Below the pieces are notes generated by a model, which saw only the letters and a list, made by a program, of their open reading frames with translations, made no database searches and was not told the origin of the DNA. Of a DNA stretch of 61,930 nt, positions 1,308-61,930 are shown piece by piece; the first letter of the stretch is position 1; the number at the start of each line of letters is the position of its first letter. The DNA is from a virus. Lineage: Duplodnaviria > Caudoviricetes. Where the stretch lies: the IMG/VR virus record IMGVR_UViG_3300020045_006659, positions 1 through 61,930 of that record. One strand, given 5' to 3'. Made by a program: the position numbers and the translations under genes.

Positions 1308-1474
1308 TCCGCTGGCCTCAGATCGCGCAGCAGGGCATCTAGCTTGACTATGGTAGCGTTCCAGATAACGTCATCAAGTGACGTGAATCCATGCACTTTC
1401 AGGCACCGCTGCCAGTCGCCAGCAGCCATGTTGTCCTGGTGATGATGCAATTCCTCGGACACTGTTCTAAACAT
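1304..1474 (-). CDS. Hypothetical protein (56 aa)
   Basis: Read by hand as MFRTVSEELHH...; overlaps both neighbours. Confidence 0.5.
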   Translation of the reverse strand: MFRTVSEELHHHQDNMAAGDWQRCLKVHGFTSLDDVIWNATIVKLDALLRDLRPAE

Positions 1475-2180
1475 CGGCGCTCCTGGTGGCCGCGATGATG
1501 GCCTCTACGTCCGCATCGCTGATAAAGTCGGCGCTGTGGCCTGCTTCCTCGCGCTCCGGTATCACGAACGGACCGAACTTCGCGTCCAGTTCGGCGCGTT
1601 TCTCAATCATGATAGATCGAAAGTTAGTCAGCACGCCTTTCAAGTCTCCTATAAATTCCTCGTTTCTGTACGTCCGAATCGGCGGTATCAGCAAGCGCGG
1701 ATGGTAGTTGAACACGTCCCACCACTCGCGTTCGGAGATCAGCAGGCACCCCTGAATCTGCGCCATGGCTTCCTCTGCGGCGGTTCCGGTAAGCGCCTGC
1801 TCTATCTGCGTGTGAATCAGCCGGCACTTGATCTCTAGGCCGCCATCGGTCCCAATGAGCCGATCCGGGGAACATCCCATCGTCCGGTTATCGTCCGTGA
1901 TGAATCCGCCAGGTAGCGTTTCGGTGTCGGTCAGTGATTCGTAGGTGGCAATGGCCTTGTCTTCAAGTTCGACGCCTCGCGTCATCCAATCGGTTTCGGC
2001 GTTCTCTACGCGCTCCCCGGTTATCTGTTCGGCCAGCAGGCGGTAAAGGACGTAGGCGTGTGAAGCCGATAGCTTCCGCGTCTTGGGAGTCAACAACTTA
2101 TGGAACTCGCTGGCCGTCGGTATGCCCAAGCGTAGCGTGTACCATTCCTCGGAGCGCTGTGGGATCGGATGGTAGATCAT
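1467..2180 (-). CDS. YqaJ/lambda-exonuclease family recombination nuclease
   Basis: QRSEEW...R.G.PTASE, RG.ELE..A, GCSPD.L, LEIKC and Q.QG.L motifs. Confidence 0.92.
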   Translation of the reverse strand: MIYHPIPQRSEEWYTLRLGIPTASEFHKLLTPKTRKLSASHAYVLYRLLAEQITGERVENAETDWMTRGVELEDKAIATYESLTDTETLPGGFITDDNRTMGCSPDRLIGTDGGLEIKCRLIHTQIEQALTGTAAEEAMAQIQGCLLISEREWWDVFNYHPRLLIPPIRTYRNEEFIGDLKGVLTNFRSIMIEKRAELDAKFGPFVIPEREEAGHSADFISDADVEAIIAATRSADV

Positions 2181-2935
2181 TTCCCCTTGCTCCCTAATCC
2201 TCGGCGCTTGGCGTTGAGCAGATTCATAGCTGGCGCGAAGTTAGCGCGGTACAGTTCCCGCACCGACTTTGCCTCGAACGTGGCAAGGAACTTAGTGCGT
2301 CCATCGTCGCCCATGCTGCACTCCGCGAACATATCTTCAATCTCCATGGCCTGCTTCTCGCTGATGTAATCGCTGGCCCGCGCCCCGTCTTTGTCCTCAT
2401 CGACAAAGCGTAGATTTAGCATCAGCTTGGCGACGTACCGCATCCCATAGCTGGTGGAGCTTCCCACGGATTGCAAAGCGTTCATCGTAGTCGATCCGCT
2501 GCGCGTTGGCGTCACGTCTGGCGGTAGGTAGATGACGCCTTGCCGGGAGTGTCCCGCGACATGGGAAAGCAGCCCAAACGTTGGGATCTCGCCCTTGGCA
2601 TTGGCCTCTCCAGATGAATACGTGAGCGTGAAGCCCTCGGCCTCTAGGATCGGGTCGATGATCTTCTGAATGTCATCGAACGGCGCGTACTTCGCGTTGT
2701 GTCCCTTGGCAGTCTTCTTGAATGCCGGGAAGCGGAGCCGCGAGAAAGCTGCCGTAAACTGCTGCTCGGCCTGCCATTTAGTGATGCGCTCCATCCCGTC
2801 AAGCAGAGCCTTGAGGTTCTCCGCTCCCGCCGTGGGATTCGCGGTAATGACCTTCATCAACTGTGCGGCCATGTCCGGGCGCTCCATTGGCATAACGCCG
2901 TGCTCATCTTCCCGTAGTGCTGGTAGCGTGCTCAT
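2177..2935 (-). CDS. erf: ERF-family single-strand annealing protein
   Basis: KYAPFDDI, LLSH..GH, QSVGSSTSYGMRY and ED.DG motifs; adjacent to the exonuclease. Confidence 0.9.
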   Translation of the reverse strand: MSTLPALREDEHGVMPMERPDMAAQLMKVITANPTAGAENLKALLDGMERITKWQAEQQFTAAFSRLRFPAFKKTAKGHNAKYAPFDDIQKIIDPILEAEGFTLTYSSGEANAKGEIPTFGLLSHVAGHSRQGVIYLPPDVTPTRSGSTTMNALQSVGSSTSYGMRYVAKLMLNLRFVDEDKDGARASDYISEKQAMEIEDMFAECSMGDDGRTKFLATFEAKSVRELYRANFAPAMNLLNAKRRGLGSKGK

Positions 2936-38957: not shown

Positions 38958-39012
38958 TGCTAGCTGAATATGAGTTTAACGGAGAAAACTAGCAGGTTTG
39001 ATGGGTAGTGCG

Positions 39013-41162: not shown

Positions 41163-41353
41163 GATGCCCTCTAGCTTGGGGAACTACAAAATATCAGTTC
41201 GACAGGTTCCCCGTCAATCACCATGGTACCGTTCATTAATTACATACCGCCGGGTGACCCTAGAGCCACTATCCCCAGCCACACAGATTTAGCGCACTAC
41301 CGTTTGATGTGGTGGTGAGTTTATTCGCCCTTGCGATATGAACAGGCCCTGTA

Positions 41354-44078: not shown

Positions 44079-44630
44079 TCACGGCACCAGTATCTTCTGC
44101 ACCATGTTGATCGAATCCTCGACCGATGGGCTTCCGAAGTTCTGTTGGATCTGGACCTTGGCCTGCCGTCCCTTCAGGTTAGATGCCTCAAACACGAGAT
44201 TACGGGCATCCTTGTCGCCGGGAACGCGGACCTCGGCGCGGCCTTTGCACTGCGGGCACTGTCTTTCAATGGCATTATCATCCTTGCCCTCAAAGATCAC
44301 CCCCTTGCCGTCGCATTTTTGGCAATACACGGTTTGCGACTTCGCATCAACGGCTACATCTTCCATAACTTGCGGCAGGTGTTTCAGCATGGCCACAACG
44401 CCACGCGCGCGCTGAAGATCAGAGCACGCCTCAACAAGATCCGTTAGGTTGACCTCGTACTTGGCGCAGTTCTTTTTGAAGCTGGCTCCCGGCTTGGGAT
44501 CGAGCATCGCCGCCCGAAGGGCTTGCAATCGATCCTTGGGGCTGAACTCCAAAGCTTCCATGAGTTCATCCATGCCAGCGGCTTCTAGGAAGTTCTCTAC
44601 CGGAGCTACGAGTGCTGTCGATTTCGCCAT
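44079..44630 (-). CDS. Putative terminase small subunit with DnaJ-like Zn finger
   Basis: Helical, upstream of terL, CQKCDGKG/CPQCKG, C-terminal VQIQQNFG typical of TerS. Confidence 0.55.
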   Translation of the reverse strand: MAKSTALVAPVENFLEAAGMDELMEALEFSPKDRLQALRAAMLDPKPGASFKKNCAKYEVNLTDLVEACSDLQRARGVVAMLKHLPQVMEDVAVDAKSQTVYCQKCDGKGVIFEGKDDNAIERQCPQCKGRAEVRVPGDKDARNLVFEASNLKGRQAKVQIQQNFGSPSVEDSINMVQKILVP

Positions 44631-44799: not shown

Positions 44800-45207
44800 C
44801 TACTTACATCCAGCTTGTTTTGCCGTCAGGACTCTTTCTCCCTTGTGTACCTTAGCGAATCCGGTTTTCTTGACCATGCCGCCGTGCTTGAAGGATGACG
44901 GGTTTGCTTTCATGGTCCTGCGTACAATCTCCTCATTGCTGGAACCATAGGGCGCTGTTCTTACATTCGCGGAAACTTTATTGGGATTCCGATGGATGTA
45001 ATCATCGACGCCTGATTGAAGGGCTGCATCGGCACTGGGAGGTCCGGTAGATGCGTCTTTTTGATTGTTGGCGGAAGCCTTAGCGTAATCTCCATCTTTG
45101 GCATATCGCTTGAGTCGATCCGCACGGGCATTTTTTTGTTTCTGAATCCCCGCTTCCGTATAATCGCCACGACCTTCTACCGTTCTCTCATATTTGGAAG
45201 GAGCCAT
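44800..45207 (-). CDS. Hypothetical basic protein
   Basis: C-terminal SFKHGG.V.KTG.A.VHKGERVLT motif, common in phages. Confidence 0.7.
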   Translation of the reverse strand: MAPSKYERTVEGRGDYTEAGIQKQKNARADRLKRYAKDGDYAKASANNQKDASTGPPSADAALQSGVDDYIHRNPNKVSANVRTAPYGSSNEEIVRRTMKANPSSFKHGGMVKKTGFAKVHKGERVLTAKQAGCK

Positions 45208-45708
45208 GAATCAATCCTACACCGAATCTTGAATTTTCACGCCAGAATCTTCCACGACGATTACGGTATCACCGGGAAGGTTCCCGGTTTCCTCAATCAG
45301 CTTCAAAACATCGGGGCGAACCTCGCGGGGGTTAAACTGCGCCATCGCCGCCATCTCCCGTAGTTTCGCCAGGGTCACAATCCCTCCGGCGATTCGAGCG
45401 CATAAATCCGCCTCAACTCAGCCAGCGCCGGGTCCACGGGCATCTCCAGGCACACGCCATCCATGGCGGCCTCGACCACCATCGACGTGACGGCCTCAAT
45501 AAGCCGCTTATACTCGTCAATCACCCGCTGATCCACGAAAACAGGCTATCATACTAACCGCTTAGGATGCAACCGAATCCCGATTTGACAAGCGAGATTT
45601 TTTGGGGCAAAATTTGGTTGTCCAGCTTTGGCCGGCTGGATAGCAAGGAATCTGAGATAGACCGGGACGGTTTCTCTAGTCCCGGCCCGGTCATCAGACT
45701 AGAGGCAG

Positions 45709-45960
45709 ATGAGCGAAAAAACAAATCCTCTCCACGGAATCTACGAAGCAGACCCAACCGGTATCAGCGGCTATGAATGGATTGGTATTCCACGCACTGC
45801 CCGCGCGCCGCTTACAGTCGATCAGTCGATACAAATAATAATCCTAGCCGAGCGCGAGCGCTGCGCTAAGATCGCTGAAGATTGTTCTTGTGTTGAATGC
45901 GAACACGCCCGATGTAGAACAAAAAGAGTAATCGCCGCAGCCATCAGGAGCGGGAAGTGA
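45709..45960 (+). CDS. Hypothetical phage protein
   Basis: AERERCAKIAE...IAAAIR motif. Confidence 0.65.
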   Translation: MSEKTNPLHGIYEADPTGISGYEWIGIPRTARAPLTVDQSIQIIILAERERCAKIAEDCSCVECEHARCRTKRVIAAAIRSGK

Positions 45961-46172
45961 CAATCCAGCGTAGATCATTTTTGGCCACCCTCCTCGCGCC
46001 AACCATGGTGTGGTTCCTACCGAAAATAAGATGTGGCTATGTACCGAAGCAGCCGAAAATGATACTTCTGGAGTGTGAACTGGTTTGGTATCGGGAAGTA
46101 TGGCAGAAAGACAAAGCTCCATTTGTGGAATTATTCATTCCTGAGTCTTACCCGTGGGATACAGAGGTATGA
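45957..46172 (+). CDS. Hypothetical protein with Tat-like RRSFL N-terminus
   Basis: MTIQRRSFLATLLA. Confidence 0.5.
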   Translation: MTIQRRSFLATLLAPTMVWFLPKIRCGYVPKQPKMILLECELVWYREVWQKDKAPFVELFIPESYPWDTEV

Positions 46173-46514
46173 TGGTGAACCAGCCTTGCCCGAACTGCGC
46201 GATCAGCAAAGACCCCAAGTGCTCGGTGTGCTTTGGGTCCAAGGAAATCCCGAAACCGAAGTGGCACAACGCTACCCACGAAACCCTGTTCCGCGCCCTG
46301 ATCCCAGGGTGGAAGGCGGAAGCGAAGTGAATTGCGGGCGTTGCCATAAACCAGCCACGTATCTGTATCACTGGTCCTCCAGTAACCCAAACGTAAGTTT
46401 ATCTGTGTGTTTGGATTGTGACCGCATAATGCGAGATGTGGTGATTCAAGGAATAGCCTACGCTGGCGCAAACAAGCAGGCGGAACCAATCGAAGTAGAG
46501 AAGCGGGAAACCGA

Positions 46515-47135
46515 ATGAGATTTGGCCTTCGTCGTTTTGTTAAGCCGATCAAAAGAAAGGCCGCACGGAGAATGCGGAAGAACCCTACTCCAGCAGAGGG
46601 GGCATTTTGGGATGCTTACCGGAGTCTAAAGCGTCATCATTTGCGTGTTCCGATGCGTCGGCAAGCGATCCTGCTAGGGTACATTGCTGACTTCTGGTTT
46701 TGTAGCCGACGTGTAATTCTCGAACTGGATGGTGGATACCATCAAACTCAAGAACAGAAGGCATATGACCAACGCCGTGATTCTCAACTAAAGGCGGCAA
46801 TCAAAGGCTTACGGGTGATTCGGGTAGATAACTCGGAAGTCCTCAAAGATCCCGCTAAGTTTGTGAAAGAGTTCATCGCTATGCTAAAGACCTTGCCAGT
46901 ATACGGCAACTGGTCAGCCAAGAAACCAAGACCTGCCGTCCAACCGCAAGGCTCACTCGTGGGCAGCGGCTCAAATAGCAGGCCCGCAACGCGCAACACC
47001 AGCCGGAGCGGAAGTCCAGCAGCACCGTCCGCAAGACCGATGTACGGTAGAAAACGTGAAGGAAGCGGAGAGGCGGTCAGAACCCTCAGCCTGAATCGAC
47101 AGGCCAGCGAATATCTGGGTCAAGCCAGCGCTTAA
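46515..47135 (+). CDS. DUF559 (Vsr-like PD-(D/E)xK) endonuclease
   Basis: R.NPT.AE..FW, RRQ....YI.DF, .ELDG.YH, YD..RD and VIR..N.EV; low-complexity tail after about residue 130. Confidence 0.88.
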   Translation: MRFGLRRFVKPIKRKAARRMRKNPTPAEGAFWDAYRSLKRHHLRVPMRRQAILLGYIADFWFCSRRVILELDGGYHQTQEQKAYDQRRDSQLKAAIKGLRVIRVDNSEVLKDPAKFVKEFIAMLKTLPVYGNWSAKKPRPAVQPQGSLVGSGSNSRPATRNTSRSGSPAAPSARPMYGRKREGSGEAVRTLSLNRQASEYLGQASA

Positions 47136-47290
47136 CTCTTGGCGTTCTACGGGGCCAAGCGTCGCCGCAAGGCGGGGTTAGTCGGGATACCACCGACTTC
47201 TGGGGTGGGTTTCACCACTAAAGCGCATTCCAGCGCCAAGGTGGGTAAGCGTAGCGTGTGTTCGTTACCTTGCGCCTGCGGCTGCTTTTT
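46930..47290 (+). ncRNA. Candidate multi-hairpin RNA overlapping the DUF559 3' end
   Basis: Dense hairpins with GCAA tetraloops, ending in a T-run. Confidence 0.4.
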
Positions 47291-47313
47291 CCCTCCCACG
47301 AAAGGAACATACC

Positions 47314-47517
47314 ATGACACCAGAACAAATCGCTGAACTCGAAAAAGCCTACAACGAAGCCTTCCTTGGAACCGAATCCCCAGATTACATGGAACTCAAT
47401 ATCCCCGAAATCGGATTCATCCAAGCTGCTAACGGTGGTACCCTCCTCATCAACGGAATCGAAGCCACCCGCGAACAAGCCCATGCCGTAGCCAAGTGGC
47501 TCAACTTCAAACGCTGA
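47314..47517 (+). CDS. Hypothetical protein
   Basis: RBS aagga; clean ORF. Confidence 0.65.
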   Translation: MTPEQIAELEKAYNEAFLGTESPDYMELNIPEIGFIQAANGGTLLINGIEATREQAHAVAKWLNFKR

Positions 47518-48140
47518 ATTTTGTATTTTTTTTATTCTGACGAGTACAGCTAGCGCGTGGATTCGGGGTGGGTATGGGTGCCCTTGGACAATCCAGCGGG
47601 GTTAATCGGCGCTTGCCGGCAGGTTCTCGGCGTTTGCGTGAGGTCCACTCATGCCGTCGAGACGCTGAAACGCGCAAGTGATAGCAAGCACAAGGATGAT
47701 ACATACTAACTGTTATCGGAAGTAACCAATAGAATCAATGAGATAGCGCGAATAGGCTGCCAGGGTGAGCGACAATTGAGGTGATTGAGTGCAGGTTGCT
47801 AAGGTTTCAGGCCCGCGCCGCGCTCGTATCCGGCCTTGAATGCAACCTCGAAGAGCTTCGCATAACGAGCGCTTGAGAGTTCCCAGGTTTCGGACTCCGG
47901 GCACCAATGCGCGAGAGAGGCTCGCGCTGACATAAACGCTCTTTTCCATGCTGGCCAAGCACGGATCGTGGCAGAGCCTTTAGTGCCACCAATGGACGCC
48001 AGCAGCTTGAAGTCAGGTCGGGTATGCAACAGTGGTGCGGGCCGTAACGTACTATTAGAGCGCGTGCTAGGGTACACCAGCGCTGGATTAGCAGCCATTG
48101 GTTCGATGCTACAGCATGAGGGTTGCGAGGTGCAAGTCTG

Positions 48141-48153
48141 CAAAGTATTGATA
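48141..48153 (-). promoter_or_regulatory. IHF consensus site
   Basis: TATCAATACTTTG matches WATCAANNNNTTR; near-match at 47733..47745. Confidence 0.5.
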
Positions 48154-48240
48154 TTGCGTGGAATGCTGGAATGGCGCGATAACGTGCAAAACGAGCAAGG
48201 ATTATATTTCTAGTGTAATCAGTAAGGTAGAAGTATTCCC

Positions 48241-48269
48241 TTGCTAAGTGCTTAGGATAGCGTTATATT
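48241..48269 (+). promoter_or_regulatory. Sigma70 promoter with CTAAG-N2-CTTAG operator
   Basis: TTGCTA-17-TATATT; heads the small-gene array. Confidence 0.7.
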
Positions 48270-48308
48270 GGGGTTGCCGGAAAACCAATCTGGCAGAAAA
48301 GAGATAAA

Positions 48309-48560
48309 ATGAACTCCACTTTTTACCATGATGGCTATCGTGATTGGGCCGATGGCATTTGTTCTCTTCCTGATGTCCAGGAATACATGCTAGGGCAGAA
48401 AGCCGCTGAGGAAGAGGAAGACATCAACGAAGACAACCCGCATGGAGCACGTTGCCCGATGTGTGGGGAGGAGTTAGTTGAAGGCATTTGCATCGACTGC
48501 GACGATAACAAAAACTTCGGCGAAGCATGTAGGGCATTTTATGAATCGGAGGTGAAGTAA
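48309..48560 (+). CDS. Small acidic Zn-finger protein
   Basis: CPMCG...C.DC; RBS gag. Confidence 0.6.
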   Translation: MNSTFYHDGYRDWADGICSLPDVQEYMLGQKAAEEEEDINEDNPHGARCPMCGEELVEGICIDCDDNKNFGEACRAFYESEVK

Positions 48561-48634
48561 TGAAACCCTCCAACATCGCCCCCCGCATGGAGTGAATTGC
48601 TACAATGGGCAGTGAAAACCTACTGTGTAATCAT

Positions 48635-48736
48635 ATGACGCTAGATGATTGCGCATCACTTAATCCAATTTTGCGCCGGGCTGAGGTCGAAGGCGGAGGC
48701 GTCGCTTACACCGACGATAAACCGATCCATGAGTGA
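48635..48736 (+). CDS. 33-aa peptide equal to the C-terminus of 51235..51501
   Basis: PILRRAEVEGGGVAYTDDKPIHE is shared. Confidence 0.5.
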   Translation: MTLDDCASLNPILRRAEVEGGGVAYTDDKPIHE

Positions 48737-49085
48737 CAAGCCACCGTCCGATAACTTCATGCGTGCTTTGTTAGGGGAGGTCTTTATGTGTCAACCAGAC
48801 GGCATCTATGCCGATTCGGGCAATGGACCAAAGAAAATCAGTGGGCGACAAAAGCGCTTGACCCTCAGCGGTCGCAATAGCGAGCCGATAGGCTATCGCG
48901 CGGTATATGTCGATGACGTGCATATAGGCGTAGTCTTTCGCAAGTTTGGCCAGACCTGGAGCGCCGAGGATATGGCCGGTCGCTTACATGGCGATCAGTA
49001 CACCAGTGATTGGAACGCAGCCAGACAGTTAGCACTGGCAATCAATGAAGCCACCTACGATTGGGAAGGACAACCGGAACTATGA
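48729..49085 (+). CDS. Chimeric small protein (modules A+B+tail C)
   Basis: Segments shared with 51494, 50340 and 52429 ORFs. Confidence 0.7.
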   Translation: MSDKPPSDNFMRALLGEVFMCQPDGIYADSGNGPKKISGRQKRLTLSGRNSEPIGYRAVYVDDVHIGVVFRKFGQTWSAEDMAGRLHGDQYTSDWNAARQLALAINEATYDWEGQPEL

Positions 49086-49324
49086 GCGCCTGCCAAAAAT
49101 GCAATGGATTAGGCTACATCACAGGCGGCTTACAGTCTGGTTGTCAGTGTCCTGGTTGTGCTGGCAAAGGCGAAGTCACTAAACGTGACAAAACGCTGGC
49201 CGAGTGGATCTTTCACCAGTGGCGCTATCAGGCGATAGACGAAGGATCACAGCTATGGATTCGACGCCGCGAGTTAGCAGTAGAGCAAGATTTTGATAGC
49301 TGGGAAGTTGTGAAGATATTATGA
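49082..49324 (+). CDS. Small protein with DnaJ-like Zn finger
   Basis: CQKCNGLG...CPGCAGKG. Confidence 0.6.
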   Translation: MSACQKCNGLGYITGGLQSGCQCPGCAGKGEVTKRDKTLAEWIFHQWRYQAIDEGSQLWIRRRELAVEQDFDSWEVVKIL

Positions 49325-49725
49325 GCAATACCGAATTGGACGCGCTACTAGTCCGCGTGCGTGAAATGAGCACCAATGCCGCGTATCCAGACCGTAACGC
49401 GGTCGCCTACGATTGCTACCGCATGTTCGAGGATCTCGCCAAGCACTATAAAGAACACTTTGCCATGCACATGATGTTCAAAGAGCGCTCCAATCAACGC
49501 ATGGTCAAGTTACTGGAACAACATGACTTATTGCGCGAAGTGGCGGCAATCGACGATGCCGACGATCCGGGATTGTGGAAGACTGGCGATCTACTAAAGC
49601 GGATTCGAGATTACATCGAGCCGCCCGCTAACCCTCATGCTTCCGATTGCAATTCGTGGCTAGGCGAGCCGTGTAATTGTGTGACCGGGAAATACCTCGA
49701 AGATCTAGACAGGAGCCTATTTTGA
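49321..49725 (+). CDS. Hypothetical protein (module E + tail D), paralog of 52429..52851
   Basis: TELDALL.RVRE, VAYDC.RMFEDLAK and HASDC. Confidence 0.75.
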   Translation: MSNTELDALLVRVREMSTNAAYPDRNAVAYDCYRMFEDLAKHYKEHFAMHMMFKERSNQRMVKLLEQHDLLREVAAIDDADDPGLWKTGDLLKRIRDYIEPPANPHASDCNSWLGEPCNCVTGKYLEDLDRSLF

Positions 49726-50021
49726 ATTGCGATTGCGGGAAATACCCAGAAGGCGCTCAACACACAGGCCTGGATTGCGGCGTATCATTACCGCATCCGC
49801 GCGTCTTAGCTCGTGTTTACAAAGAGATAGAAGACAAGTATCCCGCTCCGGTTATCACCGAAGATCAGAAGCAAAAGTATTTCGAGGAAGGCTACGATCA
49901 GTGCTTTGCAGAGGTCATCGACGAAGTGAACCGTTGGAATCATCCGGACACTAAGTCTTTTGTTATGTGGCTGAAAAACACTTTCAAACTGTCAGCGGCG
50001 AAACTGCCGCGCGGAGATTGA
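49722..50021 (+). CDS. Hypothetical protein
   Basis: TTG start overlapping the upstream stop. Confidence 0.5.
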   Translation: MNCDCGKYPEGAQHTGLDCGVSLPHPRVLARVYKEIEDKYPAPVITEDQKQKYFEEGYDQCFAEVIDEVNRWNHPDTKSFVMWLKNTFKLSAAKLPRGD

Positions 50022-50128
50022 AAAACAGTTCCGGCCCCTGTCTTATCTCCAGAGGCCGAACGCTGCAAGCTGGTAACTTGCCATGGTTGCGGGGCGATAC
50101 GCCGCAACCGAAAACGGGAAGGGGGAAT

Positions 50129-50347
50129 ATGAGCGCTAACGGTGAATTGGGAAAACCAATACGCGGCCTAGAATGTTGTTGTTGCGGACAATCTACGCGC
50201 GGTCGGCAGTGGTGGAATCGGGATACGGGGTATGGAATTTGCCCGCCCTGTATCAAGTACGTGAAGTCTCATGGCGAAACCGACGCAGAGATACGGGACA
50301 ATTACGGAATTGAAGGCGTTCACTATGAGGTATCTCTCCATGGCTAA
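50129..50347 (+). CDS. Small Zn-binding phage protein
   Basis: CCCCG..TRGRQWWNRDTGYGIC..C. Confidence 0.7.
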   Translation: MSANGELGKPIRGLECCCCGQSTRGRQWWNRDTGYGICPPCIKYVKSHGETDAEIRDNYGIEGVHYEVSLHG

Positions 50348-50564
50348 AATTCACTTGACCCTAAGCGGTCGCAATTCTGAGCCTTTGGGAATCCGCGCGG
50401 TATACGCCGATGAGCAACAAATAGGCGTAGTCCGTCAATCGCGCGATAGTGAGGGCCTATGGATCGCCGATGATATGCAGGGACACTGCCACGGAGTGAG
50501 CTACACCACCGATTGGTACGCAGCCAAGCAGTTAGCCTTAGGGCTTGGGATGGACCCACGATGA
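50340..50564 (+). CDS. Stand-alone module B protein
   Basis: LTLSGRNSEP...QLAL, homologous to the middle of the 48729 ORF. Confidence 0.65.
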   Translation: MAKIHLTLSGRNSEPLGIRAVYADEQQIGVVRQSRDSEGLWIADDMQGHCHGVSYTTDWYAAKQLALGLGMDPR

Positions 50565-51501
50565 GTATGCTACCGCCTTTTATCAAACTGAAGAATCATC
50601 CGGGTAACAGTGATCCATCGGCCCGCTTAGTCGATTCTCAGGCTTACGCTGGAGTTTATCAAACGGCGAATGGATTCGTGGGCACTCTCCCGGCAGGAAT
50701 GGCATTTGAGGGATTTTTTAGCACGCGCGAAGAGGCCAAAGCAGCGGTATCCCGCGTTATGGATGGATTCAAGCGGAGGCCCGAATGAGCAAAGCCATTC
50801 AAGACATTGCAGCCAATGAGGATTACAGGCGTTTGATGAGCCTAACTCACGCTCAGGATGACTTTGTACAGCGATACTCCGCACTCATCCCGGATGATCG
50901 CCGCCGCGAAGACTTCAGGCGCGATCTAGTTTACTTGATCCATTTGACCTATCGTCAAGCGCAAGAGCCACTTACAAAGCAATTGACGGAATACGTTATG
51001 GCTTACTCAAACTGCAAGCCAATCATCATGGAGAAACTATGAGCGGCTTCGGGCCACGCACGTACTTAGTCGGTCAATTGTTGCCCGTCATGATTGCCAA
51101 CCATCCGGGAGGCGCGATAACCTCACAATCCACGGCTGAGGCCCTGGACGAAGCAATCCGCATGACTCTGTACATTGCCGATTTAACCATCGGTCGCATG
51201 GGTAAACAGATAGTCCATGACTTCGAGGAAACTAATGCTAAATCAACCGATAATCCAGCCGTCTAGCGATGCGGATTGGAAAGCGTACTACGAACGCAAG
51301 AGCCGGATCTCCGAGAAACGGGAGAAAGCCATGCGCCTAGCTATTGAACAGGCCCTAACGCTAATGTCAGAGCCGAATTGGGAAGGGATGCAAGCGGCAG
51401 TAATGGTGCTGGAAATGGCTGCACGCCACCCGATTCTACGCCGGGCTGAGGTCGAAGGCGGAGGCGTCGCTTACACCGACGATAAACCAATCCATGAGTG
51501 A
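50561..51501 (+). CDS. Four coupled small hypothetical ORFs (50561..50788, 50785..51042, 51039..51266, 51235..51501)
   Basis: Successive start/stop overlaps. Confidence 0.55.
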
Positions 51502-51805
51502 TAAGCTGTCGTCTGATGACTTCATGCGTGCCCTATTGGGTGAAGTCTTTATGATTCAACCGGATGGAGTGTATAGCGATTTAGGTAAAGGCCCTGAGAA
51601 AATCAGTAACGCGCTTACCCGCGCATCCGTGCAAGCTGAGGAATGCCAGTGTGTTAGCTGCGTCATGTGCTCCGGTACTGGCCGCGTGAAGATCGACCAT
51701 TGGTCCGACATGGAAACCGAGCCATGCGAAGACTGCGAAAACGGAATCAGTGAAGTTTGCGGACGCTGCGAGTATCTAGCGGATCTGGATAGGGAGCTAT
51801 TCTGA
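51494..51805 (+). CDS. Chimeric small protein (module A + Zn finger + tail D)
   Basis: MSDK...FMRALLGEVF, CxxC repeats and YLADLDRELF. Confidence 0.7.
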   Translation: MSDKLSSDDFMRALLGEVFMIQPDGVYSDLGKGPEKISNALTRASVQAEECQCVSCVMCSGTGRVKIDHWSDMETEPCEDCENGISEVCGRCEYLADLDRELF

Positions 51806-52436
51806 TGAGCGAATATGATCGGCTGAAGGCACAGAAAGATGAAATACTGGCACGCGAATTGGAGATTGTATGCTCATCGTGTGGCGGTACTTGCATTTAC
51901 AAGCGTGAAGGCAATCGGGTTGTGTTCATGCATAGCTGTACTCCTCCGCAGGTGCGCGAACGTATGATAAAGCTTCGCAAGATAGCGTGGCCGTGGATTC
52001 CCGCGCGACAGAACCAGATTACCTTTGACGAATGGAGCGAGCTAGTTCGATGGGTAACGGAATCTGAATTGGTGGTTTCGGAGGCGAAGCAATGAGTAAG
52101 TGTAAACTCAAGCCAATACCGCAATTGGATGCCCGCCTAGTAAACCCGATCTTGAAACGCTTCGGGTTCAAACTCCCTGAAAATGTACAGCGCAGGCGGA
52201 CGGCGCCAGGTCGAGCTATCGCACGCTGGCACCTTGGCTATTACTACGGCTACGGCGAAAAGGATCTTTGGATTCCGCTCAATGAATACGGGGGCATGGC
52301 GACGAAAGCCTTTCATGAGCACACGGTTAAATTTCCGAAGCGGATCGATACAGCCTTACGTAAGCTGCTAGATCGTGAAACGGATTCCGTTAGGGCGATT
52401 CGCGGGAAGTTAGCGGAGGCCAACAAATATGCCTGA
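51805..52436 (+). CDS. Two small hypothetical ORFs (51805..52095, 52092..52436)
   Basis: Coupled ORFs. Confidence 0.55.
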
Positions 52437-52851
52437 GATGACTGAACTAGACGCGCTCTTGTCCCGCGTCCGCGAAGACAAAGCCGATACCACCGGCAAG
52501 AATCGAAACGTGGTTGCCTATGACTGCTGGCGCATGTTCGAGGATCTCGCCAAGCGCTACAAAGAAGAGTTTGCCATGCGGGATATGTACAAAATCCGCG
52601 CCAATCAACGCATGATGAAGATACTAGAGCAACATGACCTATTGCGCGAAGTGGCCGCAATCGATGATGCCGACGATCCTGGATTGTGGAAGTACGCGGA
52701 CCTGCTAACGCGCATTCGGGAGTACATCGAAACGGTGGCGAATCCGCACGCCTCAGACTGCAATTCATGGCTGGGCGAGCCGTGTAGCTGCGTCACGGGC
52801 AGGGAAGCTACGGACTGGCGCGACGATTGGGAAGGACAACCGGAACTATGA
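52429..52851 (+). CDS. Hypothetical protein (module E + tail C)
   Basis: Paralog of 49321..49725. Confidence 0.75.
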   Translation: MPEMTELDALLSRVREDKADTTGKNRNVVAYDCWRMFEDLAKRYKEEFAMRDMYKIRANQRMMKILEQHDLLREVAAIDDADDPGLWKYADLLTRIREYIETVANPHASDCNSWLGEPCSCVTGREATDWRDDWEGQPEL

Positions 52852-53766
52852 GCCAATGGCGACCTACCCCACGCGATTCAACCGAAGCCGTTCTACTGAT
52901 GTTCCTAGCATTCTTCGCGCTCATGGCCGTGTGGTCTGTCGCAGAGTGGCTATACTCGCACATCTGGCGCTCGTGGCGCGTTCGGCGGTACTTGCGGCGT
53001 ATTCGGCAGCATGAAAGCGCCGTAGATCGCTCCAAATACGCGCTACGGTCTACGGTGAGGCCGCTATGAAGAAACTTACGGGACAAATTACCATCGGGCG
53101 CACAACGGCGGCGGATAACGACGAACCAATCCGCATCGAGATCACCGACAAGGCCAGCGGTATTCGTATCGTCACGCTCACGATGCGGTTAGAGGATTTC
53201 GCTTCTTGCGTGACTGGCTTGGGATACCAGAAGTGCTCCGTTGAACTGACCGAAGATCCTACGGGAAAACTAGGCAAACACATCAAAGCAAAGACTGAAC
53301 TGGTGCCGTTTAAGTGGTCTGGCAAGTATGAGGACGAGAAAGGCAAGCGTAAAGCAGCCGACAAAGCCGTTGCGCCGTTCTTGGTCGATGGCTGGTCTGA
53401 ATACCGGGCCAGCGATCTATTCAACCATCACACGTGGTCACGCGGCAACGATGGGCTAGACTATCAGGCGGTAGTATTTTGGCGATACGACGAAACGCCA
53501 GAGGGAGCTCCACAAAAAGGGCAAAAGCCATGACCGACGCGCCCAAGTCCACCCATGGCGGGGCCGCAAGCGCTCGGATCAGCCGCGCTGCGCTTGCGGC
53601 AAGACAACACTGGCGCGGGCTAAGCGGAACCGGCACAAGTGCAAGCCAATTTGACCGCTATTGGTCATCTGATAGGAAACTGCGGAGATACCAGCCGATT
53701 GTAAAGCCGATCAGTATGCCGAGGGCAAGCATCAGCGGTCCTGGCTCGTTTGTTCCAGGTAGGTGA
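52848..53766 (+). CDS. Three hypothetical ORFs (52848..53069 membrane, 53066..53533, 53530..53766)
   Basis: ATGA-coupled ORFs. Confidence 0.55.
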
Positions 53767-53944
53767 CGCGCCTATCGATGGAATCAACATGTTGCTTCTC
53801 CGCGAACGTGTTGCGCGCCCATTCGCGCAAGTCACTGGCGAGTCGTGAGATTTCCAGTTTGATTTGGAGCAGGAGGAAGTAATTCGCGGCTCCGGCAATT
53901 GCAAGTATACCCGTCATAATGGCGCTGATCATAGGCCAGTTCAC
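53732..53944 (-). CDS. Single-TM + coiled-coil protein (holin/lysis-associated candidate)
   Basis: N-terminal TM; C-terminal IDRRVT.LE. Confidence 0.5.
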   Translation of the reverse strand: MNWPMISAIMTGILAIAGAANYFLLLQIKLEISRLASDLREWARNTFAEKQHVDSIDRRVTYLEQTSQDR

Positions 53945-53948
53945 GGTA

Positions 53949-54341
53949 CTACTTGGCCTCCGGTGGATTGATGGTGGTTGTGCTGGTGTGCGGAGAAAGA
54001 ACGACTGTCCCGTCTGGCCCTACCGTAGTAGTATGCGCAGATCGTTCTTTTATCACGGTTGGTTCAAATTCTGGTGGTATCGCCCAGATCGGCGGCATTT
54101 TCAGGTAGGCTTTGTGCTCGTCGTAATAGTTCCATAGCTTCATCCCTACTCCGGTAAGAGCTAATTCCCGCACGAGACCCCAGTCAGTGGCGTCTGTGTA
54201 ATTTCTATAGTTATGCCAAGCAGCCACGATAGCGGGAATCATTCCATAACCGCCGGCCTTTACTGCGCCAATGGAAAAGTAGAGCAACGCCTTATCCCAG
54301 GTATAATCGGTCTTGTCCCCTAATGCGCTTAGAATTTGCAT
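53949..54341 (-). CDS. Membrane protein, holin candidate
   Basis: Two hydrophobic segments, near the endolysin. Confidence 0.45.
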   Translation of the reverse strand: MQILSALGDKTDYTWDKALLYFSIGAVKAGGYGMIPAIVAAWHNYRNYTDATDWGLVRELALTGVGMKLWNYYDEHKAYLKMPPIWAIPPEFEPTVIKERSAHTTTVGPDGTVVLSPHTSTTTINPPEAK

Positions 54342-54347
54342 TGCAAG

Positions 54348-54542
54348 CTACCCCTCCGGTTTGACCGTCGGCGTGATCGTAATGCTGATCTCGCTGTTAG
54401 TCAGCAGGTAACGAACTTCCGCGCCAAGGTCAGTGGCAAACTTGGCAAGAACGGCCGGCAGTAGCTTTTCTGCACGATCAGCTAGAGCGGCGGCCAGGGC
54501 CTGCTCATCGACAACGTTTTTCTCGTTGACTAGCATTCCCAT
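54348..54542 (-). CDS. Hypothetical protein
   Basis: ATG 7 nt after a TATCAT -10 box. Confidence 0.55.
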   Translation of the reverse strand: MGMLVNEKNVVDEQALAAALADRAEKLLPAVLAKFATDLGAEVRYLLTNSEISITITPTVKPEG

Positions 54543-54686
54543 GGTGAAAATGATACACCATTTTCCCGTTTTCGTGATATAGTACCGCCAATGGGCGTTT
54601 CCTCCGTTGCGCCCGCCACCGCTGCGGGCGGCTTCCACCACCCTGGACGCAAAGCCGCCCGCGCCCTAACGTGATACAATTTCCGC

Positions 54687-55043
54687 ATGGCTAACCCACT
54701 GAAGGCTATCGGCGGTTTCTTTGCAAAGGTGTTTCGCTGGTTCACGAGCGATGCGGCGCAGCGTGTGGCCGAGAAGATCCAGGAGTATTGCAAGGCCGCG
54801 CTGCCCGTTGTGGAGTTCATCGCGTCACTAACCCCCACGCGCATTGACGATGAGATTATCGCGCTATTCAAGCGGTTCGGGCTGGAGAATGTTGAGAAGT
54901 ATCTGGCGCTGCCCCAGGATGACCGCGGAACGGCACTGATGGCCGCCGCCGTATCGGAACTCCAGCGACAATTCCCTGATGCGCCGATTAGCCAGCTACG
55001 CGCCGCCATTGAGCTAGCCGTGAGCTTATCCAAGGCGAAGTAG
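54687..55043 (+). CDS. Helical protein upstream of endolysin (holin-like)
   Basis: Amphipathic N-terminus; LTPT.IDD and LRAAIE.AV motifs. Confidence 0.55.
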   Translation: MANPLKAIGGFFAKVFRWFTSDAAQRVAEKIQEYCKAALPVVEFIASLTPTRIDDEIIALFKRFGLENVEKYLALPQDDRGTALMAAAVSELQRQFPDAPISQLRAAIELAVSLSKAK

Positions 55044-55173
55044 TGCTCACCGTGGCGCTGTTAGTTGTGACGCTCGGCTCGAAGGACTACCCTCAGCTAG
55101 TCAGCAACATAAAGCTCATCAGCCGGCACACGGCCTGCTTGGTCACGACGCGGCACAGGTGCAAGAAACGCTA

Positions 55174-55776
55174 ATGGCAACACTGTCCGAGCGCATAGCG
55201 ACGATGTGCCGCGCTGCCGTGGTCACAGAGAAGGCTACGGGATGCCCCGCTGAGTTGCTGGTAGCTCAATGCGCTGTCGAGAGTGGATGGTTGCAGCACG
55301 CGCCGGGGAATAACGCGCTTGGATACAAGCACTACCCGGGAGCGTTCGGTAAGCAGTTACTCGCAACAACTGAGTGGTTTACGGATGCCCAGGCGGTCAA
55401 GTTCGCTGGCGGTGATGGCATTCTTGAGGTTCCCAGCGATGTCACGATTGACCTTCCCGATGGCCGGTGGATCCGCCCGATGAACACGCGAATCGATGAC
55501 AAGCGGATGTACGCCGTCCGCGACTGGTTCGCAGTGTTCCCTAGTCTCGAAGCGTGTTTCGCGCGACGTGCGGAGCGCTGGAAGGCCGGCCAATCCCTCC
55601 CATGGGTCAAAGCGTTCCACAAGACCGGCGACTTGACCGCGATGCTACGGGCTATGGCTGCGGGCTATGCCACGGCGCCGGATTACGCCGATTCCCTACT
55701 GGCTGTGCTCGACAAACCCGAAGTGCAAGCAGGGCTAGTGCAAGCACGCGCCGAACTAGGCACGCTCAAGGCTTAG
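55174..55776 (+). CDS. Endolysin, GH73 glucosaminidase/FlgJ-like
   Basis: AQC..ESGW, NN.LG.K, TTEW, F..F.SL and GYATAP.YA. Confidence 0.88.
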   Translation: MATLSERIATMCRAAVVTEKATGCPAELLVAQCAVESGWLQHAPGNNALGYKHYPGAFGKQLLATTEWFTDAQAVKFAGGDGILEVPSDVTIDLPDGRWIRPMNTRIDDKRMYAVRDWFAVFPSLEACFARRAERWKAGQSLPWVKAFHKTGDLTAMLRAMAAGYATAPDYADSLLAVLDKPEVQAGLVQARAELGTLKA

Positions 55777-55976
55777 TTTCGCGTATCAGCCATTGGGCTT
55801 GTCCTCCGCTCTATGCAGTCCAAATTCGCGCTGAAGTGTTCTACAGAACATCCCCCAAGCTATTTGCTCTCGTGGCTTCAATTGATCCCATGGAGGATCT
55901 ACAAACCCCGCCCCCGTAACTTGCAGCCCTTCATTTTTAAGGCTTTCCAAATAGACTTCGTATAATATCTTTGGGT

Positions 55977-56354
55977 TCATCCCGCTTTCTCCTGCTCCCC
56001 GTGGTAGGCGATGAGTAATGCACACCAATTACAAGAGCAACGTTCACCATGCGGATTCTCTTTCATTAGTCGATCAAGAATCACCATCGCCTCTATATAC
56101 GCTTGGGCGAATGTGGGAACGTCGGTGCGGGCGGCTGCGATGAAATCTCCGTTGTCTTTCAGCGGTAGATTGGCACCGACGCCGCGCATTCGGGTGAGAG
56201 TACCTTCTTCGTCCTGTCCATCATCTGCGACCATCTCATGATTTGGCCCCCAAATGAACATCTGATAGTACTTGTCTAATATCCACGGCCCTTTCGTCGC
56301 CTTCTCCGCTCTCTGAATCGCGGCAAGAGCCTCGGCTTTAGTTGGCATCTTCAT
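55977..56354 (-). CDS. Ead/Ea22-like protein
   Basis: AEKAT.GPW and .FIAAARTDVP. Confidence 0.7.
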   Translation of the reverse strand: MKMPTKAEALAAIQRAEKATKGPWILDKYYQMFIWGPNHEMVADDGQDEEGTLTRMRGVGANLPLKDNGDFIAAARTDVPTFAQAYIEAMVILDRLMKENPHGERCSCNWCALLIAYHGEQEKAG

Positions 56355-60963: not shown

Positions 60964-61264
60964 AGAAGCCCGCCAGATCCGGGTTGCGCTCCATGATGTA
61001 GCGGGCGTAGTAGGGCGGGTAGTGGTCGTTCAATTTGTAGTCATCGTTGCCGCGCTCAAACTTAAAAAACCATCGCATACGCTCCCAAATCATCCTGATC
61101 CCGAAATGATTAAAGCCACGTCCCTTGACCTCTGAAGTCAGCTCAACCAGCTTCTGGTACACCTCGGGATGCTCTGTGTGGAACCGCTCCCACGCCTTGT
61201 AGTGGCGCTCGTTGTGGACCTCGGAGAGCAGCTCGGACGGGAAGCGTAGGGTGGATTGGGTCAT
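60938..61264 (-). CDS. Conserved phage hypothetical protein
   Basis: FH..HP.VY, I.E..RW, YKLN..Y..YYAR..M...P....FFE.R; ATG overlaps the stop of the ITR ORF. Confidence 0.75.
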   Translation of the reverse strand: MTQSTLRFPSELLSEVHNERHYKAWERFHTEHPEVYQKLVELTSEVKGRGFNHFGIRMIWERMRWFFKFERGNDDYKLNDHYPPYYARYIMERNPDLAGFFETRERHG

Positions 61265-61521
61265 AGCCGAATTACCGGGCAATCTGGACCAAGGAATGTT
61301 TCCTGATCCTTGCTGTGCTCCCCCTTGCGTCTTCGCGCTACGGGAGCAACGGGTGGAGCTGCCTTTAGTGCGCACGGCTCACAAACTAGGCGGTCGATAC
61401 GCAGCATTACTTTTTTGCCTTTCGTAAAAACAACATCCCCAGCCTTCGGGAGTGGCTGTTTACATTTAGGGCAACGCAATGTTGGCTGCGCTGGTACATC
61501 ACATAATCTCTCGGATTCCAT
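61261..61521 (-). CDS. Small Zn-finger protein (duplicated at 410..670 +)
   Basis: CPKC...CEPC; RBS ggagga. Confidence 0.6.
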   Translation of the reverse strand: MESERLCDVPAQPTLRCPKCKQPLPKAGDVVFTKGKKVMLRIDRLVCEPCALKAAPPVAPVARRRKGEHSKDQETFLGPDCPVIRL

Positions 61522-61542
61522 ATACTCCTCCCGTGTAACGCT

Positions 61543-61758
61543 CTACTTCCGCCCCATCCCGCCCTTGCGCTTGCTGTTACGCTCCGTCCGCGTGGCAAGG
61601 AACGTCAGCAAATCCCCAAGCACGATCTGTACCGACAGATCCCCGCGATACCGTACGGCGTAGCGCCTCGCCCAATCCTTGACGATCTCGCGCTCATCCG
61701 CAGCGCCCCGGTTCAACGTCTTCGGCCTTGCTGTCTTGCTGCTCATTCGTGTTGCCAT
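61543..61758 (-). CDS. Small basic protein (duplicated at 173..388 +)
   Basis: RBS aaggag before MATRMSSK. Confidence 0.6.
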   Translation of the reverse strand: MATRMSSKTARPKTLNRGAADEREIVKDWARRYAVRYRGDLSVQIVLGDLLTFLATRTERNSKRKGGMGRK

Positions 61759-61930
61759 AGTTCTCCTTTTATGTACGACCCCGACCACGACCGCGACCCC
61801 GACCCAGCCCCCACCCCCACCCCGCGCCCGACCTCGCCCACCCACCCCACCCCAACGCCCCACGCGCACCGTACCACGCATCGCCACCCCACCGCTACGC
61901 CCGGTCGACTCCCCTGTCAGTCCACCCCCC

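Follow-up and report, generated by a model that had tools for sequence, protein, structure and literature searches.

Short gene modules in a small-gene operon of a soil phage: a probable outcome of ordinary recombination

The genome of an uncultured soil phage, available as an IMG/VR metagenome record (IMGVR_UViG_3300020045_006659, 61.9 kb; the window below is this whole stretch of 61,930 nucleotides), contains about 18 tiny, tightly spaced genes in one plus-strand operon, in which parts of genes recur in different combinations. This array raises the question of whether its layout reflects a dedicated shuffling system. The earlier note on this DNA proposed that the coding linkers, each consisting of a C-terminal tail, a stop and the next start, are dedicated handles through which Erf and YqaJ exchange, cut out or fuse cassettes without loss of translational coupling. 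The observations below are best compatible, with a probability of about 0.6, with a hyperplastic accessory-gene operon whose small proteins were built by ordinary recombination from a cross-phage pool of short modules, namely leader A, domain B (two subtypes), the E-N, E-M and E-Ct parts, zinc ribbons, and tails J, C and D. The array thus appears to be a vivid yet essentially ordinary example of phage gene shuffling, and a dedicated shuffling machine is not proven.

Layout of the array

Genes overlap by 1, 4 or 8 bases at 13 of the 16 array junctions, as the handle model would have it, and reading frames and overlaps are unbroken from end to end. The repeats are all direct, on one strand and inside 4.2 kb; a whole-window self-BLASTN detects no other dispersed direct repeats. 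The five repeat classes (A, B, E, C and D) and the architectures A+B+C, A+Zn+D, E+D, E+C and B alone are present as previously described. The relevant features are as follows.

1467..2935, minus strand: YqaJ-type exonuclease (1467-2180) and ERF-family single-strand annealing protein (2177-2935); Pfam, PHROGs
48605..48736, plus strand: 43-aa ORF carrying tail J copy 1; protein match to the end of 51217-51501
48675..48737, plus strand: junction J copy 1, the last 21 codons (RRAEVEGGGVAYTDDKPIHE, then stop) with the overlapping start ATGAGTGA of the next gene
48729..49085, plus strand: gene A+B+C, 118 aa (leader A, B subtype 1, tail C); homology and structure model
49057..49087, plus strand: tail C copy 1 (DWEGQPEL, then stop) with the overlapping ATGAGC start of the next gene; identical 31-mer
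49082..49324, plus strand: small gene, DnaJ/anti-TRAP-type zinc ribbon and C-terminal module; profile match and comparison
49321..49725, plus strand: gene E+D, 134 aa; protein comparison
49675..49752, plus strand: 28-nt direct repeat with spacing 50 around tail D; repeat family D9, 75%
49677..50021, plus strand: ORF without an ATG start; homologues upstream of E-N genes in L007, L015 and L008
50129..50347, plus strand: Cys-rich small gene, 72 aa
50340..50564, plus strand: gene B alone, 74 aa, B subtype 2; protein comparison
50561..51266, plus strand: three single-copy small genes (50561-50788, 50785-51042, 51039-51266)
51217..51501, plus strand: 94-aa gene ending in tail J (copy 2 at 51440-51502); protein and nucleotide comparison
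51494..51805, plus strand: gene A+Zn+D, 103 aa; protein comparison
51805..52436, plus strand: genes 51805-52095 and 52092-52436; neighbour comparison
52429..52851, plus strand: gene E+C, 140 aa; protein comparison and structure model
52823..52853, plus strand: tail C copy 2 with the start of gene 52848-53069; identical 31-mer

Modules and junctions within and beyond the window

The sequence that the earlier note described as the upstream junction of module A is indeed repeated but represents the C-terminal 21 codons of another gene (51217-51501). The alignment of J together with module A (48665-48842 vs 51430-51607) shows 82% identity over 178 nt, and the J copies themselves (48675-48737 vs 51440-51502) differ by 1 mismatch in 63 bases, with 20 of 21 codons identical compared to 73 of 122 for the conserved residues of A and E (Fisher p 0.001). 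The last 29 residues encoded by the short ORF 48605-48736, which may be a remnant or a mini-gene, match the C-terminus of the 51217-51501 product (83% over 29 aa, E 1.5e-15). Altogether, tail J is the end of four different proteins (94, 43, 230 and 55 aa). Both window copies of the J tail, with the ATGAGTGA overlap of stop and start, run into an A-type gene, and in L006 the next gene is of the 51805 type, so the same linker does stand beside different cargo in a relative, a point in favour of handles. The window copies share 63 of 66 nt (95%) with each other and 54-56 of 66 nt (82-85%) with the L006 copy; this difference counts against handles and indicates that the near-identity of J comes from a within-genome event rather than from a universal sequence requirement. 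The copy in L010 is weak (about 25 of 66 nt). Nucleotide-level selection may nevertheless act on the last ~30 nt of J, 27 of 30 of which are kept in L006 by hand count.

The two copies of tail C belong to different sub-variants upstream (NEATYDW vs EATDWRDDW), and their last 31 nt are identical. A search of the window for the 31-mer, allowing up to 3 mismatches, returns 2 sites, and none of 100 shuffles produced a match; the identity by itself is modestly improbable (P ~0.016 for 8 synonymous-capable codons). Among 128 fetched proteins, tail C ends 16, on four unrelated body types, and is terminal in 16 of 16, which is compatible with the handle model. Its variation, however, falls at fixed positions, with W, G, Q and L invariant and the penultimate residue acidic (consensus (N)EA(P/T)YDWxGQxEL-COOH); this substitution pattern, which looks like selection on a peptide, speaks against that model. 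J and tail C are the only near-identical pieces (1 mismatch in 63 and 31 of 31, respectively), which suggests recent intragenomic exchange.

The database gene call for 48729-49085 begins at Met20 (P0091, 99 aa), so the place of leader A in this gene rests on homology. In the structure model, B forms a beta-sheet and a helix with block-mean pLDDT of 80-88, the leader and the tail are mostly below 60, and tail residues 109-118 are below 50. The leader, with the pattern MSDKLPSDxFMRALLGxxFM, is found ahead of four or more cargos: B subtype 1 (in the window and in L008), B subtype 2 (P0096-98), Zn+D (P0100-106 and P0110), and the C-terminal module of the 49082 gene (P0099). The window B copies share 59% protein identity over 64 aa, and their DNA aligns at 76% (48850-48935 vs 50347-50432) and 73% (48957-49033 vs 50460-50536). 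B of the A+B+C gene is 77-82% identical to P0092-95, and the stand-alone B (50340-50564) is 76-81% identical to P0096-98. Elsewhere, B occurs solo (P0092, P0093, P0095) and behind a zinc ribbon (P0094).

Module E consists of N, M and Ct parts whose histories differ. The E+D and E+C proteins are 74% identical over 125 aa (DNA 80%, 49393-49688 vs 52504-52799), with the identity climbing along the pair from 35/54 through 38/46 to 18/19. Comparison of the E+C protein, modelled with helices at 6-19, 26-78 and 86-101 (pLDDT 79.6), with 166 candidates identifies 86 matches at E <= 0.001, which cover at least 75% of E-N in 84 cases, of E-M in 22 and of E-Ct in 8. In the 79 proteins that extend at least 30 aa past residue 72, the sequences behind E-N fall into 20 classes, a lower bound for the kinds of C-terminal remainder that it precedes. 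Between the E-N copies in the window, 35 of 54 residues agree; the E+C copy is 92% identical to P0028, and the best match of the E+D copy is 78% (P0007). In the E-N tree, which has 55 columns and low resolution (56 of its 80 inner branches are open), E+D belongs to a 12-row clade (SH-aLRT 87) without E+C.

Tail D is repeated as previously described and makes up the last 10 codons of 49321-49725 (YLEDLDRSLF) and of 51494-51805 (YLADLDRELF); in the Zn homologues it is the native end of the Zn domain and, there, not a separate module. Its DNA is identical at 23 of 33 nt (~70%, hand count), well short of what handles would lead one to expect. The 28-nt repeat around it, which encodes NCVTGKYLE and NCDCGKYPE, is read as a putative recombination scar between E+D and the next ORF. 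The 49082-49324 product is similar to Anti-TRAP with an E value of 8.7e-5, below the curated cut-off, and its C-terminal module also occurs in P0040, joined to E-N, and in P0099, joined to leader A.

The relatives arrange these pieces in other ways. L008 shows synteny with the window, including a homologue of ORF 41354-43381 at 62% identity, and its array consists of A+B, a 52092-like gene, a 49677-like gene, E-N with another domain, and a homologue of 50785. Homologues of 50785-51042 and 51039-51266 are present in L008 and L012, the 51805-52095 type follows tail J in L006, the 52092-52436 type is ahead of E-N genes in L004, L008 and L016, and G002 has only the 52092 and E-N genes in common with the window. 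Modules on other contigs come in many further combinations and orders, so the pieces are portable, and a single fixed order in relatives, named in advance as the finding that would count against shuffling, is ruled out by differing orders and fusions.

The claim that junction DNA is the best-conserved part of the array holds for J and C; it fails for D and generally across genomes. In the window, L004, L008 and L016, the conserved DNA corresponds to domain cores, and the 52092-to-E junction is hypervariable, the least conserved stretch, with insertions of ~300 nt. Many breakpoints, moreover, lie inside genes. Both observations weigh against handles.

Recombination and rival explanations

The phage encodes an ERF-family annealing protein (PF04404, 9.2e-10) and a YqaJ exonuclease (PF09588, 6.3e-17), an assignment made earlier from the sequence alone with which Pfam and PHROGs agree; these are predicted to be its general recombination enzymes. 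As also proposed earlier, the phage appears integrase-free: the Pfam scan of 43 ORFs, those outside the array being of at least 100 aa, identifies no integrase or other site-specific recombinase of the kind an integron-like system would use, and the array repeats show no structure signal expected of attachment repeats.

In the preferred reading, ordinary phage recombination would have produced the module combinations by homology-driven, divergence-tolerant exchange, for which the phage's own Erf and YqaJ would be the obvious enzymes, with occasional illegitimate joins added. Selection would then retain products that are in frame and translationally coupled. Recent exchange or gene conversion between copies in this genome would have left the J and C patches as near-identical tracts. 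Small Logan contigs from three other, unrelated runs contain no recombinant joints. Tail C, and probably leader A too, would be kept as functional peptide motifs, the homology that they supply being a by-product of this role.

Dedicated handles, by which the array would parallel in coding sequence the PeSL cassettes of T4-type phages, are unlikely. Both window units, J-[A+B]-C and J-[A+Zn+D, 51805, 52092, E]-C, do have J to their left and C to their right, and the presence of ERF and YqaJ without an integrase among the 43 ORFs would suit such a scheme. However, apart from the conservation data above, no stable fold is detected at the four J and C patches (z-scores -0.27, 0.31, 1.58 and 0.83), and positions 45000-56000 show no excess of promoter-like sites (11 vs 8.2 +/- 3.0 expected, with a consensus that may not suit the host) or terminator-like sites (8 vs 10.3 +/- 2.9). 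The portability and variable order of the pieces are upheld, and nothing in the analysis shows the linkers to be dedicated handles or the whole to be a system; relaxed homologous recombination of a general kind, in a phage that has Erf and YqaJ, seems the likelier mechanism.

It is quite improbable that part of the array is an assembly artefact, with the alternative cassettes of co-occurring strains stacked by the assembler through shared J and C k-mers. The arrangement is known from a single metagenomic assembly, the ends of which form a 673-bp inverted terminal repeat of 99.85% identity; the patches that flank both units are short (31 and 63 nt), and two E-N copies occur in none of the other genomes checked (0 in G001, 1 each in G002, G003 and G004). 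Nevertheless, the patches would be shorter than usual read lengths and the largest k-mers, so that spanning reads would normally resolve them; the genes between the units are unique and have homologues in the same arrays of L008 and L012, and no frame or overlap is broken.

A single old tandem block duplication, followed by divergence and deletions with no exchange with other genomes, is highly improbable: the closely spaced, direct, same-strand repeats would fit it, but each copy of A, B and E-N is nearer to proteins on other contigs than to its window partner (nor are the partners mutual nearest relatives, as recent tandem paralogues would be), identity along single pairs ranges from 65% to 95-100%, and orders and fusions differ in relatives.

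Comparison with known systems and possible functions

As summarised in the cited sources, PeSLs of T4-type phages are small regulatory cassettes that combine a terminator stem-loop with a strong, sigma-70-like promoter (Arbiol et al. 2010, PMC2839356), are mobile within hyperplastic regions (PMC2839356; Comeau et al. 2014, PMC4122927), and have demonstrated mini-circles (PMC2839356). The array resembles this description in that short repeats border small, non-essential genes that lack known homologues and lie in a variable region, and inter-repeat recombination is held to shuffle, delete or circularise genes. The difference is that the array repeats are coding (a protein tail with overlapping stop and start) and PeSLs are regulatory: J and C lie within coding sequence, at gaps of -8 and -4, and not in a non-coding regulatory position, the intergenic position of PeSLs being our reading and not a statement of the PMC2839356 abstract.

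In lambdoid phages, recombination at short conserved gene borders, or linkers, is proposed to join non-homologous modules (Clark et al. 2001; Susskind and Botstein 1978, as relayed in PMC3029335). J fits this idea because the same tail and start adjoin different neighbours in different genomes. In the array, however, only J, and tail C at the protein level, behave in this way; many joints are intragenic, and borders are not generally more conserved than modules, as the 52092-to-E junction and tail D illustrate.

Rad52-like recombinases of temperate coliphages and prophage remnants have been shown experimentally to catalyse relaxed homologous recombination, according to the summary of De Paepe et al. 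(2014, PMC3945230). The array phage likewise encodes an ERF-family annealing protein with an exonuclease, and traces of homology mark the borders of exchanged pieces (J and C), although here exchanges reach below the gene level and a part for Erf is inferred. Polyvalent proteins of phages and conjugative elements, outlined in Iyer et al. (2017, PMC5512222) as combinations of 2 to 15 domains per polypeptide, are similar in being combinatorial proteins of mobile elements; the array proteins differ in being 70-140 aa long, with two or three short modules and no significant Pfam match.

Leader A is a short conserved N-terminal leader before at least four unrelated cargo domains. In T4 internal proteins, a conserved N-terminal capsid-targeting leader likewise precedes variable cargo; leader A is likened to it by layout, not as a targeting or cleavage signal.

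The array genes have no match above the cut-off in Pfam, PHROGs, NCBIfam or PADLOC, and the host-takeover or anti-defence role suggested earlier finds no support in these collections. The Pfam hits of the array proteins are zinc-finger and zinc-ribbon models, all below curated cut-offs; the best hit in a sequence profile search of PDB has an E value of 0.055, and fold searches identify no match at E <= 0.001 (best Z 4.8). Our best guess is that these are early accessory proteins, given that the L006 genes of the family come immediately after erf and exo and share their strand.

Dual use of the leader and tails, as peptide docking motifs and as DNA patches over overlapping stops and starts for in-frame Erf-type swapping, is a rather unlikely scenario. 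If it were true, leader A and tail C would dock unrelated effector domains onto one common partner, an Erf-type recombinase could swap domains and genes in frame, and the array would play the part of PeSL cassettes in coding form, giving soil phages a combinatorial repertoire of small early proteins.

The nearest small-gene relatives of the array are found in Acidobacteriota MAGs, and the host is probably a member of the Acidobacteriota, an assignment based on two MAG loci, each of which shares the E-N gene and one adjacent small gene.

Organization of the small-gene array

The region from 48.3 to 53.5 kb is a single plus-strand series of about 18 small genes, with overlaps of 1, 4 or 8 bases at 13 of the 16 gene junctions between 48729 and 53066, and with the start ATGAG(C/T) in 11 of the 19 array genes listed. 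The genes that are central here are the following (other array genes are named by their coordinates or start positions):

48605-48736, +, 43-aa ORF ending in tail J
48729-49085, +, A+B+C (leader A, domain B, C-terminal tail C)
49321-49725, +, E+D (helical module E, consisting of the parts E-N, E-M and the Cys-rich end E-Ct, and tail D)
50340-50564, +, B alone
51217-51501, +, ends in tail J
51494-51805, +, A+Zn+D (leader A, zinc domain, tail D)
52429-52851, +, E+C (module E, tail C)

All repeats listed in the earlier note are present, and self-comparison of the entire genome identifies the repeats of the array as its sole dispersed direct repeats. At the protein level, A+B+C matches B alone (59% over 64 aa) and A+Zn+D (58% over 52 aa), E+D matches E+C (74% over 125 aa), and the ends of E+D and A+Zn+D match each other (46% over 26 aa). 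The segment originally described as a junction upstream of module A is indeed repeated but represents the final 21 codons of another gene, i.e., the coding tail J (RRAEVEGGGVAYTDDKPIHE, followed by a stop). Each of the two units in the array has J on its left and C on its right, giving J-[A+B]-C and J-[A+Zn+D, 51805, 52092, E]-C. Alternative cassettes may have been stacked in this arrangement, or sequences from co-occurring strains may have been misassembled. Among sequencing runs, no RNA run is listed as containing the sequence; the Logan contigs of three other DNA runs, which share 5-6% of its words, contain scattered pieces and no joints. Contigs from two of these metagenome runs match positions 50055-51394 and 51582-51849 (five pieces in X3, with 0 to 21 differences each, and one 268-nt piece in X2, with 0 differences), so that parts of the array have close relatives in other samples.

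Tail D is flanked on both sides by a direct repeat of 28 nt with a spacing of 50 nt, which can be read, from the sequence, as a further recombination scar; ORF 49677-50021 has been left by this repeat with no ATG of its own. The product of the gene that follows the second copy of tail C (52848-53069) is 73 aa long, contains a single strongly hydrophobic segment and is likely to be a small membrane protein.

A pool of modules in related proteins and loci

With E+C as the query, 86 of 166 candidate proteins match at E <= 0.001. At least 75% of E-N (the first 58 residues) is covered in 84 of the 86 matches, the middle part of E in only 22, and the Cys-rich end in 8. The C-terminal remainders of 79 E-N proteins (at least 30 residues past position 72, joined at E <= 1e-3 with at least 60% of both sequences aligned) form 20 classes that include DUF551-type, zinc-ribbon and many unique ends. 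For example, in P0040, E-N is fused to the C-terminal module of the window gene 49082-49324, and in P0072, an unrelated front precedes the E end. Queries with A+B+C and A+Zn+D, which return 9 and 14 proteins, respectively, reveal the same mixing pattern: B is found alone, after a zinc ribbon, or after a 20-residue form of leader A; the leader also precedes Zn+D and the C-terminal module of 49082 (P0099); and Zn+D occurs without any leader (P0108-113).

Tail D is a shared ending, with 23 of 33 nt identical by hand count; in Zn+D homologues, it is simply how the Zn domain normally ends. The tail C pattern, [DE]W.[GDN]Q.[ED][LIF], is present in 16 of the 128 collected family proteins, is terminal in all 16, and is attached to four body types, namely the E end, two unrelated helical ends and the B domain of the window.

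The family is narrow, given that a profile search against 1.84 billion representatives yields only 40 matches at E <= 0.001. Single-protein scans of IMG/VR produced no match for E+D and two weak matches, restricted to the leader, for A+B+C; the degenerate tail C pattern had 0 matches in the same database. A looser version of this pattern identified 6 loci in IMG/VR, all of which were rejected (five out-of-frame chance occurrences and the end of one unrelated large protein).

Gene order in the relatives was compared among loci from IMG/VR, JGI metagenomes and GTDB genomes. A single duplication resulting in one fixed order, the alternative to shuffling considered in the earlier note, does not describe these arrays, in which the orders differ and none is fixed. 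The locus L008 comes from a true relative, with a homologue of ORF 41354-43381 that is 62% identical and retains its position; the order of its array is A(short)+B, a gene resembling 52092, one resembling 49677, E-N with another domain, and a homologue of 50785. A 49677-like gene is located upstream of E-N in L007 and L015, whereas in the window 49677 comes after E+D; in L004 and L016, E-N is preceded by a 52092-like gene. In L006, erf (54%) and exo (56%) are encoded on the same strand, ahead of, in this order, a 230-aa protein with a terminal tail J, a homologue of 51805 (81%) and E. The complete 53-kb virus G002 has only the 52092 and E-N genes in common with the window, and G001, a distant relative genome-wide, is without E-N.

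Judging from sequence identities, the window copies of E-N and B are not recent twins. The E-N of E+C is 92% identical to P0028, P0027, P0035 and P0032, and the best match of the E-N of E+D is 78% (P0007). Identity along the E pair climbs from 35 of 54 residues in E-N to 38/46 and 18/19, and the tails thereafter are wholly different. In a tree of E-N that comprises 84 rows but only 55 columns, and in which 56 of the 80 inner branches are unresolved, E+D falls inside a 12-row clade (SH-aLRT 87) and E+C outside it. Similarly, the two B copies, which are 59% identical, represent two visible subtypes: that of A+B+C is 77-82% identical to P0092-95, and B alone is 76-81% identical to P0096-98.

Junctions, near-identical patches and the likely mechanism

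The notion that short conserved boundary sequences mediate joins between phage genes is old and reportedly appears in Susskind and Botstein (1978) and Clark (2001). In PMC3029335, such sequences are described as absent at most boundaries. The earlier note suggested that the best-conserved DNA of the array spans its junctions; in a four-genome alignment, the 52092-E border is, on the contrary, the least conserved stretch, with insertions of about 300 nt in L004 and L008, and the conserved DNA blocks lie within domains. The proposal that junctions are preferred joints survives in part: J behaves as a border that is portable, but many of the breakpoints lie within genes. The closest demonstrated system of recombination handles is that of the PeSL cassettes of T4-type phages (PMC2839356), which are regulatory promoter-terminator cassettes, unlike the array repeats. 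A scan detected no enrichment of promoter-like or terminator-like sites; thus, the repeats are not PeSL-like regulatory cassettes. A few literature searches retrieved no account of this family, nor any in which coding tails serve as borders.

Two patches are nearly identical within the window. Between the copies of tail J, 20 of the 21 final codons are identical, compared with 16 of 29 codons at conserved residues in A and 57 of 93 in E (Fisher p 0.001 against J); over 66 nt, the J copies agree at 63 positions within the window versus 54-56 against L006. The final 31 nt of both tail C copies, including the ATGAGC of the next gene, are identical, and different sub-variants that are both also found elsewhere, NEATYDW and EATDWRDDW, lie just upstream. 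RNA folding of J and C is no better than that of shuffled sequence. We infer that these patches originate from recent exchange or gene conversion between copies in this genome, which would imply that these short homologies are recombinationally active.

The substitution pattern and terminal position of tail C (W, G, Q and L are invariant, the penultimate residue is acidic and two other positions vary), together with the predicted structure of A+B+C, in which the B domain is well modelled but confidence is low for tail C and for most of leader A, are compatible with tail C and leader A being flexible peptide motifs under selection at the protein level.

The genes for recombination proteins are located near the left end and were identified by profile matches:

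1467-2180, -, YqaJ-type exonuclease
2177-2935, -, ERF-family annealing protein

No integrase was found among the 43 window ORFs scanned. A small ORF directly upstream of erf (2932-3312, minus strand) contains the Cys motif of the E end in a third copy (HASDCAYWGDEDCSC), so that the module network extends to the recombination operon.

Modules are indeed shuffled across the population, and some of the coding borders are portable; a dedicated integrase-free shuffling system, as initially envisaged, is superfluous for explaining the data. The best-supported mechanism is that general, divergence-tolerant homologous recombination, along with occasional illegitimate joins, would generate the combinations, and selection would filter for intact, coupled reading frames. 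Divergence-tolerant homologous recombination is reported for Rad52-like recombinases of temperate coliphages in PMC3945230.

In this 4.2-kb stretch and its relatives, the shuffled pieces are 8-60 residues long and belong to very small proteins, with a short leader and short C-terminal tails that reappear on unrelated bodies. Phage mosaicism is customarily described for whole genes or blocks of genes. Should the leader and tails act as docking or targeting peptides, the family would be a compact natural system in which to study the diversification of small early phage proteins; if the patches are preferred crossover sites, it would offer a clean test of the 'linker' hypothesis beyond lambdoid phages.

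Function, genome context and probable host

Searches of Pfam, PHROGs, NCBIfam and PADLOC gave no significant match for any of the array genes. The predicted structure of E+C (pLDDT 79.6) consists mostly of long helices and has no Foldseek match in the PDB. In the A+B+C model (pLDDT 68.6), the B domain consists of a small sheet and a helix; Foldseek returns nothing at E <= 0.001, the best VIA-align Z of 4.8 is within noise, and so are the small phage inhibitors among the low-ranking fold matches. The top ESM Atlas score is 0.89, to proteins without a named family; an Ead_Ea22 cluster (0.78) was dismissed, Pfam at E <= 10 giving no confirmation. As a guess, these may be early accessory genes, since the family is located downstream of erf and exo in L006. 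The family is narrow, and the search of the phage collection revealed no cultured member; any function would therefore be new.

The complete IMG/VR record of 61,930 bases is classified under 'inverted terminal repeats': a 673-bp inverted repeat joins positions 1-673 with 61258-61930 at 99.85% identity, and may be a genuine terminal structure or an assembly fold-back. The large ORFs encode a P22-like portal, an SU10-type adaptor, a major head protein, a ClpP-like head protease, tail fibre proteins, an endolysin and a cluster of glycosyl- and methyltransferases. In the cultured-phage collection and E. coli genomes, the region has no match at the DNA or protein level. The only named genomes with relatives of the small genes are one Bryobacterales MAG and one Terriglobia MAG (in the latter, the locus sits within a 1.47-Mb contig); hence, the host is probably an acidobacterium. 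The literature on viruses of Acidobacteriota is sparse (PMC11924767).

Several other features of the genome deserve mention. Three or four glycosyltransferases and two methyltransferases are clustered at 33702-38957 (plus strand), an arrangement partly common to the 62.8-kb record G001 (42-65% aa identity). ORF 31641-32966, the C-terminal half of which is a DUF6745 domain, contains tandem repeats of about 24 nt or multiples thereof, 88-92% identical, at 31873-32350. A perfect 26-nt inverted repeat (39004-39029 / 41276-41301) flanks the region with the ClpP-like head protease gene. A 183-aa ORF at 44079-44630 (minus strand) has a CxxCxGxG-type zinc motif and shares 34% identity over 74 aa with the small zinc-ribbon gene 49082-49324. 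Directly upstream of the small-gene array, at 46515-47135, a DUF559 endonuclease-like protein is encoded (E 8.6e-22).
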